This document shows positions 50,243 to 62,401 of a stretch of 64,000 nucleotides of DNA, in pieces. The stretch is taken from contig CAWADF010000002.1 in NCBI GenBank assembly GCA_963780855.1, positions 319,761 through 383,760 on the forward strand, read 5' to 3'. A program made the position numbers and the translations under genes. The stretch is from an uncultured Acidobacteriota bacterium. Its GTDB lineage: Bacteria > Acidobacteriota > Vicinamibacteria > Vicinamibacterales > SCN-69-37. Below the pieces are notes generated by a model. That model was not told where the DNA came from and searched no databases. It saw only the letters and a program-made list of their open reading frames with translations. Numbering within the stretch: position 1 is the first letter of the stretch; every line of letters starts with the position of its first letter.

Positions 50243-50258
50243 AGGCACGACCTTTGCT
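50243..50258 (+). promoter_or_regulatory. Sigma-54 (-24/-12) promoter
   Basis: AGGCACGACCTTTGCT gives GG-N10-GC with GGCACG and TTGC; palindrome GTGTCC-N6-GGACAC at 50183-50200 upstream. Confidence 0.6.
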
Positions 50259-57620: not shown

Positions 57621-59371
57621 ATGAGCCTCCTGTCCTCGCTCACCAACCGCATCTTCCTGGCGAGTGCGCTGGTCGTCGTGATGGCGATCGGTGCCGCCGT
57701 CTACCGCGTCAACACGACCGTCACGCGACCAGGCCGAGCACGACCTTCGGGACGGCCTCGCGGAATCCGCCTCGCTCGTCGATCGAGCTCAGCCAGCGGC
57801 AATTCGCGGATTTCGCCGCGAAGGGGTCGCTGATCGCCGACCTGCCCAAGCTCAGCAACGCCGCCGCGCTCGACGATCCGCCGACGGTCCAGCCGATCGC
57901 GGAGGACTACCAGAAGAAGATCCTCGCGGACCTGTTCGTCGTGCTTGGCAGCAGCGATCGCGTGCTGGCCAACGCCGGCCGCATTCGCCCGCAGGCGGGC
58001 GACATCGAGGAGATCGCCAGCGCGTGCCGCCGGAGTCCCGACGGCACCACGTTCTGCGTCGTGCCCGGCGGCGTCATCCACGCCGTGGCGCTGCCGCTGG
58101 ATCCCGATCCGGCAGCCTCCTCGTGTCGGCTTCGGCCTGGACAAGCAGTTCGCGGCCGGCATCAAGGCGGTCACCGACAGCGACATCGTGATCGTCGCCG
58201 GCGACCGCATCGTGGCGTCGACGCTCGATCCCGAGAAGACGGCGGGCCTGCTCACGCCGGGCCGGCCGACCGGCGAGTTCGACCGCCAGCTCGGCGACGA
58301 GCGACTACGTCGGCCGTGTGCAGCCGCTCGGAAGCGGCGAGCAGCGGCGAAGAGCCGGTCGCGCTGGTCTTGCGGTCCCGGACGCAGCGGCTGGACTTCC
58401 TGCCGCGTCTGCACTGGCAGATCGTGGTGACCGGCGTCCTGGCCGTGCTGCTGGCCACGCTGGTCGCGTATGCGATTGCCCGGACCGTCACGCGTCCCGT
58501 GCGCGCGCTCACGGCGACCATGAGCGAGATGGCGGCCACGGGCGACCTGGCGCGCACGGTGCCGCCCGGGGGCGCGTGGGACGACGAAGACGCGCGCGCT
58601 CTGGCGGCCACGTTCCGGCAGCTGACGGGCGCGCTCGATCGCTTTCAGCGCGAGGCGGCGCAGCGCGAGCGGCTGTCCTCGCTCGGCCGGCTGTCCACCG
58701 TCGTCGCGCACGAAATCCGCAACCCGCTGATGATCATCAAGAGCGCGGTGCGCAACCTGCGCCGGCACGCGTCGCCAGATGTGGTCGCGGTCGCGGCGAA
58801 CATCGACGAGGAAGTCCAACGACTCAACCACGTCGTCACCGACGTGCTCGACTTCGCCCGTCCGATCCGCTTCGAGCTCGCGCCGGCCGACCTGCTGGAG
58901 ATCTGCCGCGACGCGGCCCAGGCCGCGCAGGCCGGGCCCGGAAGGCGTGCCGATCCGCCGTCGACACCAGCCGAGGCCACGGCGCCGATCGTGACGGACG
59001 CCGAGCGGGTGCGCGCGGTGCTCGTCAACGTGCTGGCGAACGCCCAGCAGGCCATGCAGTCGGTCGGCGCGACGCGACAGCCGGCGGGCCCGCGCCGCTC
59101 GATCCGAGGGCCCGGCGGGTGCGCGGCGACGGCCGCTGGCGGATCGAGGTGCAGCGACCGAGGGCCGGGCATCGCCGCGCGAGGACCTCGCCGCGATCTT
59201 CGAGCCGTTCTTCACGACCCGCCGCACCGGCTCCGGGCTCGGCCTGGCCATCGCGCGCAATATCATCGAGGGGCTGGGCGGCAGCGATCACCATCGACAG
59301 CCGGCGTGGACGCCGGCACGGTCGTCCGCATCGAGCTGCCCGACCGGCCCCCGGCAAGCGGAGGCATCCGC

Positions 59372-59375
<4 letters not shown>
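57621..59375 (+). CDS. HAMP-domain sensor histidine kinase (frameshifted)
   Basis: Two TM segments, HAMP, VAHEIRNPL, NVLANA, D.GPGI and FEPFFTTRRTGSGLGL. Confidence 0.9.
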
Positions 59376-60760
<1,385 letters not shown>

Positions 60761-60782
60761 CTCTGCGCCGGACGAGCCGGCT

Positions 60783-60817
60783 TTACGCCGTGAGTAAGGG
60801 CTTACCGCCGCCGTAAG
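60783..60817. promoter_or_regulatory. Tandem palindromes, probable upstream activator sequences
   Basis: TTAC-GCCGTGA-GTAA (60783-60797) and CTTAC-CGCCGCC-GTAAG (60801-60817). Confidence 0.65.
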
Positions 60818-60867
60818 GAATCGCCGTCGCCCGGCCCGCAGATCGGGCATTCCCGAGGCGCGGGCCC

Positions 60868-60883
60868 CGGCATCAACCTTGCT
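60868..60883 (+). promoter_or_regulatory. Sigma-54 (-24/-12) promoter
   Basis: CGGCATCAACCTTGCT: GG at 60869-60870, N10, GC at 60881-60882. Confidence 0.68.
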
Positions 60884-60893
60884 CTCTGATGAC

Positions 60894-61045
60894 GCGTGTG
60901 ATCGCAGATTCCACAGGGGGCGAGGCGGTGCCGCGCTCGTCGTGATTGGGGGACCGACGGTGCCTCGGTTTCGGTGCCGTGCCGAGGCCGCTGGAACGAT
61001 CGCCGGGCGTTGCCTCCCTGCCTCGCTCCCTTTGGAACCTGCCGG
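60894..61045 (+). ncRNA. Candidate sigma-54-dependent rod-shaped small RNA
   Basis: 60904-60928 pairs with 61018-61042 at 23 of 25 positions, plus three inner helices; wobble pairs favour the + strand; no credible ORF. Confidence 0.5.
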
Positions 61046-61054
61046 GACAGATCG

Positions 61055-62401
61055 TCATTCGATGAGGCGCAGATCGACGACACCGGGCGCGGGCCGGGTG
61101 ACGAACGTTTCCGACCGGCTGAGCGCCGGATAGCTCGACCGATAGGCGTCGAACCAGCGCGCGGCAAAGGCATCGGCGTCGGCCGCGTGTGCGAGCGCCC
61201 ATACGCTGCCGCCAAAGCCGGCCCCGAAGCTGCTCGACGCGAACGCGCCGTGCTCGCGCGCGAGGCCCGCGAGCAGCCTCGTCTCCGGAGTCTGGTTGTT
61301 GAGCAGGCGATCGGCGTCGGTCTGCGACGCGAGCGACAACTCCCCGATGGCCGCGACGTCGGCGCGACGGAAGGCGTCGGCCGCCTGCGGCACGCGCGCG
61401 TCCTCGGCGAGAAAGTGCGCCAGCCGCGTCTCCAGATCCTGCGCGGTGAAGCGGCCGCCTCCGCGATGGGCCGCCGCCAGACGGTGCAGTTCGTCGGCCG
61501 CGTCCGGCGCGCTGTCGAGAAACGCCGCGAGCGTCGGCCACGTGCCGCGGCCGACCTCGTTGGCCAGGTTGACCAGCGCGCGCGTACCGAGCGACGCTCG
61601 GTTGTAGCGATCCTTCGCGCTGCCCGCCTTGTCCGCCTGGATGCCGCTGGCCGCGACAACGAATCGCCAATCGTCGGGCACGCGGTCGTCGCTCAGGTGG
61701 CGCACGGGCACATAGGCGTACGCGCTGACGTGGTCCGCGCGGCCGGCCAGAATGGCGGTGTGGTCCTCGCTGCCGCCATGGGTGCCGACGCCGCTCGTGC
61801 CGGGCAGGGCGTTGAACGACAAGCCGTTCTCGACCGCGCCCAGGTACCCGGCCAGATCCAGCGTGGTGCCAATGGCCTTGCGCCAGTCGTCGCGCGCTTC
61901 GAGCTCGGCGCGCCGGATCAACGCCGTCGCCACGCCCACGACCAGGGCGCTCGAGCTGCTGAGCCCGGCCGCGCGCGGCAGGTCGCTCAGCACCGTGATG
62001 TCGGTCCCCAGATCCGCACCCGGAAAGTTGTACGCAAGGCGGCGCGACACGACCGCCACGTAGTTCGTCCAGCCGACGAAGCGCGTCTCCGGGTCGCGCG
62101 GGTCGATCTCGACGGCATCGCGCCAGCGGGCGTCAATCGCGCGCACGTGCCCGTCCGATCGCGGCGCGGCGACCACCGCGAAGCCGCGCGGCACGGCCGC
62201 GACGAGCGACCGGCCGCCCGCGTAGTCGGTGTGCTTGCCGAAGACCTCGATGCGTCCGGGCACGAACCAGCCCCACCGCGGCCGCCGGCCGGTGAGCCGC
62301 ACGAACGTCGCGGTGGCGTCGCTGACGAGGATGGCCCGGCTGCCGGCTTCGACGTCGCCGAAGCCGAGCGCGTGAAATCGGCGAACCAGCGCCTCAATCA
62401 C
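61055..62401 (-). CDS. Galactokinase-family (GHMP) kinase
   Basis: VPGRIEVFGKHTDYAGG, LPRAAGLSSSSA and GAGFGGS. Confidence 0.85.
   Translation of the reverse strand: MIEALVRRFHALGFGDVEAGSRAILVSDATATFVRLTGRRPRWGWFVPGRIEVFGKHTDYAGGRSLVAAVPRGFAVVAAPRSDGHVRAIDARWRDAVEIDPRDPETRFVGWTNYVAVVSRRLAYNFPGADLGTDITVLSDLPRAAGLSSSSALVVGVATALIRRAELEARDDWRKAIGTTLDLAGYLGAVENGLSFNALPGTSGVGTHGGSEDHTAILAGRADHVSAYAYVPVRHLSDDRVPDDWRFVVAASGIQADKAGSAKDRYNRASLGTRALVNLANEVGRGTWPTLAAFLDSAPDAADELHRLAAAHRGGGRFTAQDLETRLAHFLAEDARVPQAADAFRRADVAAIGELSLASQTDADRLLNNQTPETRLLAGLAREHGAFASSSFGAGFGGSVWALAHAADADAFAARWFDAYRSSYPALSRSETFVTRPAPGVVDLRLIE

Follow-up and report, generated by a model that had tools for sequence, protein, structure and literature searches.

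Small RNAs beside sigma-54 activator genes

Small RNAs (sRNAs) transcribed from sigma-54-dependent promoters are known from several bacteria, in some cases next to the gene of the activator that controls them. The locus considered here is a candidate of this kind from another phylum: a predicted rod-shaped RNA of about 150 nt, encoded downstream of an NtrC-family activator gene in a 64,000-nt stretch (the window) of an uncultured Acidobacteriota genome (order Vicinamibacterales; assembly GCA_963780855.1, contig CAWADF010000002.1, positions 319,761 to 383,760 of the forward strand). Positions below are those of the window. In Pseudomonas, crcZ lies just downstream of cbrB, and CrcZ sequesters Crc (and Hfq) through A-rich motifs; GlmY with GlrK/GlrR, Qrr with LuxO, and NrsZ with NtrB/NtrC are further sigma-54-driven sRNAs beside their activator's operon, all proteobacterial and Hfq- or RapZ-linked. 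CpxQ (from the cpxP 3' untranslated region, or UTR) and MicL are envelope-stress sRNAs derived from regulon mRNAs, Hfq-dependent, and driven by sigma-70 or sigma-E. The Pxr sRNA of Myxococcus and other myxobacteria (PxrK/PxrR, nla19) lies immediately downstream of an NtrC-like regulator gene, in the order histidine kinase, NtrC-like regulator, enhancer-binding region, predicted sigma-54 promoter, sRNA, and has co-evolved with its two-component genes (PMC5684412). CbrB, the Pseudomonas sigma-54 activator, directly activates the CrcZ and CrcY sRNA genes as well as protein operons, and its subsites are described as non-palindromic (PMC6296734).

The window locus has the order given for Pxr: kinase, regulator, activator sites, sigma-54 promoter, RNA. 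It differs in phylum; in its single long rod, where three stem-loops are described for Pxr (PMC5684412); in that its RNA matches no Rfam family (Pxr included, if Pxr is in Rfam); and in that the regulator is predicted here to drive envelope protein genes as well, whose transcription unit the RNA often shares. As with CrcZ and CrcY, a sigma-54 activator would serve both an RNA and protein genes, but here through tandem perfect palindromes rather than non-palindromic subsites. Unlike CrcZ, the RNA is GC-rich and without A-rich motifs, and Hfq was not found in any of five genomes searched; nor is it related in sequence to GlmY, Qrr or NrsZ, none of which is detected by Rfam at the locus. With CpxQ and MicL it shares a place in the 3' UTR, intergenic region or 5' part of an envelope-protein transcription unit, and with 6S RNA a rod-like shape and a length of 140-190 nt; unlike 6S RNA, it has no Rfam match and no large central bubble, is served by a sigma-54 promoter of its own and is narrow in taxonomic range. 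Literature searches, with supplementary files outside their scope, found no paper on a sigma-54-dependent RNA in Acidobacteriota.

Judged by these sequence comparisons, this is an undescribed RNA family, belonging to one clade of a Vicinamibacterales family; the family is new, and the type of circuit is already known from Pxr, CrcZ, GlmY and Qrr. That it is a genuine, sigma-54-linked structured RNA is highly probable. Overall it is best explained as a free-standing regulatory RNA in a regulon of the copper/envelope type, a reading held with little more than even confidence, and its action in trans, taken by itself, is evenly balanced.

The locus comprises the following features:

57621-59375, + strand: sensor histidine kinase gene (Pfam matches on open reading frames, ORFs, of the window; frame switches by tblastn)
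59372-60760, + strand: NtrC-family sigma-54 activator/response regulator gene (REC, sigma-54 AAA+ with GAFTGA, HTH_8)
60783-60797, no strand: distal enhancer-like palindrome TTACGCCGTGAGTAA (sequence reading)
60802-60816, no strand: proximal enhancer-like palindrome TTACCGCCGCCGTAA (sequence reading)
60868-60883, + strand: sigma-54 type -24/-12 promoter CGGCATCAACCTTGCT, with its predicted +1 at about 60893-60895
60894-61045, + strand: predicted RNA of about 150 nt (folding, conservation, covariance model)
61055-62401, - strand: GHMP/galactokinase-like gene, convergent, outside the element and ending the transcription unit (Pfam and ORF list)

The activator frame ends in a TGA at 60758-60760, and the distal palindrome starts 22 bp past it. 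The two TTAC-N7-GTAA palindromes are spaced 19 bp apart, and their centres lie some 85 and 104 bp before the predicted +1; the proximal one, which with its flanks reads CTTAC..GTAAG (60801-60817), starts 67 bp before the -24 GG. The promoter has GG at 60869-60870 and GC at 60881-60882, the correct GG-N10-GC spacing for sigma-54, with flanks resembling TGGCAC-N5-TTGCW, and it lies upstream of the RNA. The other marks of the class are also present: activator sites in the range of about 70-150 bp, an adjacent gene for a bacterial enhancer-binding protein (bEBP), and rpoN in the genome (G000:C8:2148585-2149058, G000 being the window's genome). The stop of the galactokinase-like gene is 13 nt beyond the hairpin. 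The two palindromes, a GGCA-N6-TTGC promoter and a convergent next gene had all been read from the letters alone in an earlier note on this DNA, and all are where it placed them.

In the 5.13-Mb genome TTAC-N7-GTAA turns up four times, where base composition predicts 9.4, and no second tandem pair appears even when one mismatch is allowed per site. The promoter pattern GGCAY-N4-YTTGC has 53 matches (both strands), two of them in the window, where 0.40 would be expected; the one elsewhere in the window is GGCACGACCTTTGC (50244-50257, + strand).

Fold and conservation of the RNA

Positions 60904-61042 form a rod-shaped hairpin of 139 nt, the conserved part of which is 60916-61032. It is the hairpin folded by hand in the earlier note, with 23 of 25 outer-stem positions paired; the G-U wobbles counted there are real, but their number was too low, the minimum free energy fold having 10 G-U/U-G pairs among its 55 rather than seven. 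The + strand of 60894-61054 folds at -85.9 kcal/mol (z = -2.82, none of 200 shuffles as good), against -72.0 kcal/mol for the - strand (z = -2.02, 10 of 200 as good). The consensus is a single rod of six helices, with internal loops of 1-6 nt, in which four parts stand out:

60916-60925, + strand: near-invariant 5' arm of the basal stem, GGGGGCGAGG, pairing with CCTCGCTCCCT at 61021-61031
60946-60957, + strand: invariant block TTGGGGGACCGA (invariant alignment columns)
60969-60981, + strand: 13-nt apical loop UUUCGGUGCCGUG, with a conserved CGGUGCC
60993-61000, + strand: invariant block GGAACGAT, containing AA at 60995-60996

The basal stem is a long near-perfect duplex of 21 pairs; within it, pairs 17-25/154-162 of a 48-sequence alignment are nearly unvarying, and it continues outward by about 11 freely covarying pairs. 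Together, TTGGGGGACCGA and GGAACGAT make a short helix plus an asymmetric internal loop, with GGGGA on the 5' side opposite the AA of 60995-60996. The apical loop is closed by a 6-bp stem (60963-60968 with 60982-60987) showing compensatory change in all six pairs, and the rod also has two variable covarying stems. The GGGGA loop might pair at long range with CCC in the 3' internal loop, but two relatives (G014 and G015) alter the CCC while GGGGA is invariant; this leaves no covariation, and the pairing was rejected. A likeness of the apical-loop complement to the -24 promoter element was set aside, there being no known mechanism.

In a DNA search of 71 genomes of the family, the hairpin (about positions 153-277 of a query of 295) is the only part to align in other species and genera, at 89-95% identity within the genus and 72-84% across genera; the flanks align in two close relatives only, and the RNA core of the window's genome does not differ from those of its genus relatives. 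A covariance model made with 17 sequences finds exactly one copy each in 19 of the 71 genomes, representing 11 of the 24 genera in this one family. (These family tallies include the unpublished genome G033, on which no individual claim depends.) The RNA was not found in 138 genomes from 18 other families of the order, under strict filters that let few candidates through to scoring. A pattern made from the invariant blocks had 19 matches over 185,579 species genomes (one per species), and the 17 that are the RNA are all in metagenome-assembled genomes (MAGs) titled Vicinamibacterales or Acidobacteriota, two of them with a Solibacteraceae label. The same pattern found 35 metagenome contigs, of which 34 have the RNA. 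The three remaining matches (L060 and L069 in species genomes, L170 in a metagenome) are due to chance.

Two alignments were used to examine pairing. In the first, a structure-blind MAFFT alignment of 17 sequences, 93.9% of cells pair, against 85.0 +/- 0.7 in shuffles and 36-48% when partners are slid by 1-3 columns, and compensatory double changes are seen in 22 of 46 pairs, against 10.9 +/- 1.8 in shuffles. In the second, 48 distinct sequences fitted to the covariance model, and so leaning towards the structure, 94.7% pair (slid controls, 36-49%) and 27 of the 46 pairs are compensatory. The + strand is taken to be the RNA strand, since in an RNA read from the - strand one U-G pair present in 48 of 48 sequences, and several common G-U pairs besides, would become A-C mismatches. 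Distances between the invariant blocks take all values modulo 3 (from CGAT to CTCG, for example, 23, 24, 25, 26 or 27 nt), and since they differ by one and two bases there is no conserved reading frame. Stop-codon counts are uninformative in this GC-rich sequence. The structured non-coding RNA proposed in the earlier note is thus borne out by orthologous loci, as one that is conserved and covaries.

The RNA resembles no known family. A covariance search of 60500-61300 against Rfam 15 gave no match to the hairpin and, at E <= 10, three chance-level matches outside it (12-17 bits, against gathering thresholds of 45-60); at E <= 1, eight homologous loci had no match at the RNA. These searches exclude 6S, the signal recognition particle RNA (SRP) and the other known families that the earlier note had wished to see eliminated. 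The same note had allowed for a multicopy repeat, such as a repetitive extragenic palindrome (REP) or a miniature inverted-repeat transposable element; the hairpin is instead single-copy, with one full-length match in the window's genome and one per genome in all 19 carriers. At one of the other loci (L020:2449-2586) there is a separate 138-nt palindromic hairpin matching plant MIR7526 on both strands, at 45 and 41 bits (gathering threshold 110); it is surely no miRNA and probably a REP-like palindrome.

The regulator, its sites and a predicted regulon

The RNA keeps the same company throughout. An orthologous regulator is encoded upstream of it in all 19 genomes, at 67-100% identity (tblastn pieces) to the protein of G027, a 99% complete genome in one contig. 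In 17 of them a GG[CT]A-N6-T[TG]GC promoter lies 63-138 nt upstream of the RNA core, and in the other two it is upstream of an intervening DUF5777 gene. At least one strict TTAC-N7-GTAA is found upstream in 18 of the 19, its partner 19 bp away being often degenerate; the fuller consensus is CTTACG-N5-CGTAAG, and 11 genomes have 66-68 bp from the start of the proximal site to the GG. G027 has the genes unbroken, in the order kinase, 457-aa regulator overlapping the kinase stop, sites, promoter and RNA. Its kinase (L058:5684-7417) has the domains HAMP-HisKA-HATPase_c, and its regulator (L058:7414-8787) has Response_reg, Sigma54_activat, AAA_lid_14 and HTH_8, with GAFTGA present: that is, the REC, AAA+ with GAFTGA, and HTH_8 that define an NtrC-family bEBP. 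In NCBIfam it scores below every equivalog cut-off, with AtoC, NtrC and ZraR as best scores. The arrangement suggested for the window, an RNA behind sigma-54 promoter and palindromes beside an NtrC-family regulator, is accordingly conserved in all carriers.

A few loci have additional repeats near these elements. One (L011, genome G029) has a further perfect hairpin, AAAGACGCCGGGTGTTTTTTTACGTCTTTGGTAAAAAAACACCCGGCGTCTTT, which contains a TTAC-N7-GTAA; lying past the regulator stop and before the palindromes, it resembles a terminator inserted behind the regulator gene. In a genome that does not have the RNA (G006, locus L146), a GGTCCGAGGG-like array with an inverted copy follows the regulator stop, and in the metagenome contig L165 a GGCTTAC tandem repeat of at least four copies directly follows the RNA.

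The earlier note had the RNA as the direct output of this two-component system, but it would not be the only one: palindrome and sigma-54 promoter also occur at genes for DUF5777, a "membrane bound beta barrel", and for a cupredoxin-like lipoprotein. Where carriers have their DUF5777 gene elsewhere in the genome, a CTTACG-N5-CGTAA-type site is upstream of it in 15 of 17 examined (the upstream region was not captured in G008, and G032 has no site), and each of these 15 sites begins 56-58 bp before a GG-N10-GC/TTGCA promoter. In the window's genome all four TTAC-N7-GTAA sites are at sigma-54 type promoters, two at the RNA, one at DUF5777 and one at a cupredoxin-like lipoprotein gene. The last has a TTTC-N7-GAAA partner 19 bp away and is upstream of GTGGCCCTCCCCTTGCA and a Shine-Dalgarno sequence, then the lipoprotein gene, whose product has a weak Cupredoxin_1 match (E = 0.004) and, by BLASTP, resembles the G027 lipoprotein in the signal peptide alone. 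When five other genomes were scanned for strict sites, each gave the RNA locus, the DUF5777 gene or both, and the scans also picked out unrelated repeats with A/T spacers. The predicted regulon, as these sites define it, would thus consist of the RNA, a DUF5777 outer-membrane barrel and a cupredoxin-like lipoprotein, with the RNA as one of three outputs. A literature search for DUF5777 returned no paper mentioning it.

The intergenic region that contains the fourth site (G000:C8:926700-927050, or L078:3700-4050) has two divergent sigma-54 type promoters, GTGGCCCTCCCCTTGCA facing the cupredoxin-like lipoprotein gene (L078:3344-3751, - strand) and GTGGCATTCGCCTTGCT facing a DUF5947 gene (+ strand), with the TTTC-N7-GAAA/TTAC-N7-GTAA pair between them. 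Genome-wide, TTACGAATTTCGTAA occurs at eight places in G038, and sites of the type TTACGAAAA[ACGT]CGTAA occur seven times in G012 and twice in G016, far above a reversed-pattern control; these may be the operator of another regulator or a dispersed repeat with TTACG/CGTAA half-sites.

Proposed function of the RNA and alternative explanations

In the proposed mechanism, the kinase would sense an envelope signal, for which copper or redox state is a guess from the cupredoxin fold, and phosphorylate its partner, the NtrC-type response regulator. The phosphorylated regulator would bind the two tandem CTTACG-N5-CGTAAG palindromes and switch on the -24/-12 promoter at 60868-60883, from which sigma-54 RNA polymerase would transcribe the RNA; sites and promoters of the same type would drive the DUF5777 barrel and cupredoxin-like lipoprotein genes. 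The RNA may be freed when transcription terminates at its long basal stem or when that stem is processed. It would then serve as the post-transcriptional arm of a system that otherwise only activates, and by analogy with CpxQ and MicL it could be the repressing arm of such a stress response. Neither Hfq nor CsrA would be involved; the RNA would work through unpaired motifs that do not vary, the candidates being the GGGGA internal loop, UCGGUGCCG in the apical loop and possibly the C-rich 3' arm. A free regulatory RNA is favored because its position relative to genes varies while its promoter linkage is constant, and because it stands alone in four genera.

The RNA sequence is present in RNA libraries. 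Six of 24 listed sequencing runs with the RNA are soil or rhizosphere metatranscriptomes, with 0.41 of the sampled words of this RNA, and all four such runs examined yielded contigs over 60916-61018 or 60916-61032 with 0-3 differences, a hint that it is expressed. One contig of 125 nt, at depth 112, reads ...AAACCTCGC and then, after CCTCGC, runs into sequencing adapter, so that many fragments must have ended within the 3' arm of the basal stem. Stretches of 60500-61400 that no contig covers in these runs, such as 60841-60902, carry no weight as evidence, and further DNA and RNA runs with small shares of the words say nothing of habitat.

A number of observations weigh against a free, trans-acting RNA. 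The contigs just described show neither transcript ends nor levels, and RNA libraries may contain DNA. No sigma-70 promoter or canonical terminator was called in 60600-61300, and there is no U-tract after the hairpin in the window. The only complementarity seen is between GGUGCCG in the loop and CGGCACC at codons 4-6 of the DUF5777 mRNA; this match is confined to the window's genus (6 of 6, that is G000 and five relatives, against none of nine genomes in other genera), and CGGCACC occurs 2,900 times in the G000 genome. With Hfq not found in the five genomes searched, which sets aside an Hfq-dependent sRNA, the RNA is without a known chaperone, and neither conserved target complementarity nor a chaperone marks it as a trans-acting sRNA. 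A purely seed-driven base-pairing sRNA would not usually have paired stretches as long and invariant as those of this RNA. If the frameshifts in the kinase and regulator genes of the window (below) were real, the circuit would be dead in this organism. Finally, a same-strand cupredoxin-like gene starts about 40-250 nt after the RNA in 11 of the 19 genomes and 21 of the 34 metagenome contigs, an arrangement that fits a 5' leader as well.

This last point leads to the strongest alternative, that the rod acts in cis within the sigma-54 operon, as a structure in a 5' leader, between genes or in a 3' UTR that controls the neighbouring DUF5777 or cupredoxin-like genes. It could then attenuate or terminate transcription, respond as a leader to a ligand or a protein, or be a hairpin for RNase III-type processing or stabilization. 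This alternative is possible, if on balance doubtful. In the 11 genomes (G025-G029, G016, G017, G040, G012, G003 and G008), the gene after the RNA encodes a lipoprotein of about 130 aa, in one or two copies. Its structure model, built from eight sequences (mean predicted local distance difference test, or pLDDT, 71.5), is a cupredoxin fold with invariant His, Met and Cys residues; Pfam matches are sub-threshold, and the best Foldseek matches are a copper-bound Bacillus Cupredoxin_1 protein, amicyanin and plastocyanin (target template modelling scores 0.69-0.77). In two more genomes (G019 and G038) the RNA is 3' of a DUF5777 gene of 278-288 aa, which stands between promoter and RNA, with a convergent gene after the RNA. 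Of the 34 metagenome contigs, 26 have the promoter upstream of the RNA, five have DUF5777 immediately before it, and four (L160, L167, L180 and L187) have it between DUF5777 and lipoprotein genes. Relatives without the RNA point the same way. They keep the orthologous regulator (identity of 68% or more in the C-terminal half, where paralogues reach 61% at most), and their sites and promoter run directly into lipoprotein-DUF5777 (G034-G036) or DUF5777 (G020, G023). The protein genes would therefore be the older output and the RNA a clade-specific addition, resembling an insertion into an mRNA. The long 21-pair basal duplex also suits a cis-acting structure, as does the U-rich tail that follows the hairpin in some relatives (TGATTTTTTT in G017).

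However, in six of the 19 genomes (G000, G001, G002, G014, G015 and G032, of four genera) the best downstream coding frame, judged by third-position GC, is convergent, so that the RNA would be the promoter's only product; and seven of the metagenome contigs have at least 1.3 kb downstream without a lipoprotein match (the gene is present in 21, and six are too short). Sequence and structure of the RNA are kept in these cases. Consistent placement in a 5' UTR, as expected of a cis-regulatory leader, is not seen: the RNA precedes a gene in 11 genomes, is solitary in six and follows DUF5777 in two, and across these 5', intergenic, 3' and solo positions it is the link to the promoter that is constant. 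Its invariant 12-nt and 8-nt motifs exceed the needs of a processing hairpin. In eight loci, moreover, a TAnnAT hexamer 6-9 nt before the main ATG of the lipoprotein gene suggests a promoter of its own. The earlier note had held that a protein gene after the promoter in orthologous loci would make the RNA a 5' UTR or a deletion remnant. With a lipoprotein gene following in 11 of 19 genomes and DUF5777 intervening in two, a leader or intergenic role does retain some likelihood; the RNA does not thereby become a deletion remnant, being solitary in six genomes of four genera and far better conserved than its flanks.

Two side observations concern the lipoprotein genes. In one metagenome contig (L158:1-205) a second cupredoxin-like gene (43% identity) lies 58 nt upstream of the RNA, replacing the promoter or DUF5777, for an order lipoprotein-RNA-lipoprotein. 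The hexamer of the eight loci (L010-L016 and L021) is TAAGAT, TAAAAT or TAGAAT, 40-90 nt after the RNA, and these lipoprotein starts have no Shine-Dalgarno sequence. In the five genus relatives an ATG overlaps the last base of the hexamer or directly follows it; in G025, G027, G028 and G029 it opens a mini-ORF of 2-4 codons, overlapping the main start in three. Hexamer and mini-ORF could be a leaderless-type promoter or a coupling upstream ORF.

A free RNA could also act as a protein-binding decoy in the manner of 6S, CsrB/RsmZ or CrcZ, sequestering some regulatory protein while the two-component system is active. Invariant sequence through paired regions (GGNGCGA with CTCGCNCCCT, TTGGGGGACCGA, GGAWCGAT) is more typical of protein-recognized RNAs; GGA occurs in two conserved motifs, and CGGUGCC is present twice. 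A CsrA sponge is rejected: CsrA was not found in three carriers of the RNA among five genomes searched (G000; G027, 99% complete; and G016, 100% complete). The rod has no 6S-like central bubble and no Rfam match to 6S, CsrB or CrcZ, and no candidate partner was identified. A decoy is thus unlikely.

Still more doubtful is a sensing RNA, in which the invariant internal loops of the rod would bind a small ligand or metal connected with the cupredoxin and outer-membrane proteins of the regulon (copper being the obvious candidate) or a protein, and so tune termination at the basal stem. To our knowledge no copper-responsive RNA of this sort has been described, though no literature search was aimed at it. 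If this were correct, one module would work in cis on downstream cupredoxin genes and in trans where it is solitary.

The window's own copy might be a decaying relic, with kinase and regulator as pseudogenes, the lipoprotein gene deleted and the RNA a non-functional remnant, but this is very unlikely. The regulator in the window is split over at least three frames and, compared with the orthologue in G029, has 19 indels over 1.39 kb; the kinase gene changes frame repeatedly (tblastn), beside an intact galactokinase-like gene. A cupredoxin-like gene follows the RNA in the five other genomes of the genus and has no homologue in G000 (tblastn, E < 1e-3). However, 17 of the 19 regulator indels add one base (16 cases) or two (one case) to G000, the opposite of the usual deletion bias, and they lie mostly outside homopolymers; a completeness of 59.6% in an assembly of only nine contigs is also what uncorrected long-read errors would lead one to expect. 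The palindromes, promoter and RNA core are intact, the base of the stem has lineage-specific compensatory changes, and the other two regulon promoters of this genome retain perfect sites. The indels could reflect local gene decay, and are read here as sequencing errors in an unevenly polished assembly.

Hardly credible, finally, is a small protein gene, a mobile repeat or a mere bidirectional terminator: + strand ORFs do cover the RNA (60879-61133, 84 aa; 60946-61065, 39 aa) and the hairpin does lie between convergent genes in the window, but the block spacing breaks any frame and so rules out a coding ORF, the 84-aa ORF has no Pfam match, there is one copy per genome, the element has its own promoter, 139 nt and conserved loops, and in most relatives it is not between convergent genes.

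As a regulatory RNA beside its activator, the family would be solid and useful rather than startling to a specialist, the circuit type being known. Its carriers are Vicinamibacterales, abundant soil bacteria, and every carrier genome is an uncultured MAG. The strong covariation support makes the family ready for an Rfam-style model, and the predicted circuit is complete enough to be tested: kinase, NtrC-type regulator, palindromic operator, sigma-54 promoters and three outputs. Across its genera, one RNA module is found as a 5' leader, between genes, in a 3' UTR and as a solitary gene, a natural series that bears on the origin of sRNAs from mRNAs and their later independence.

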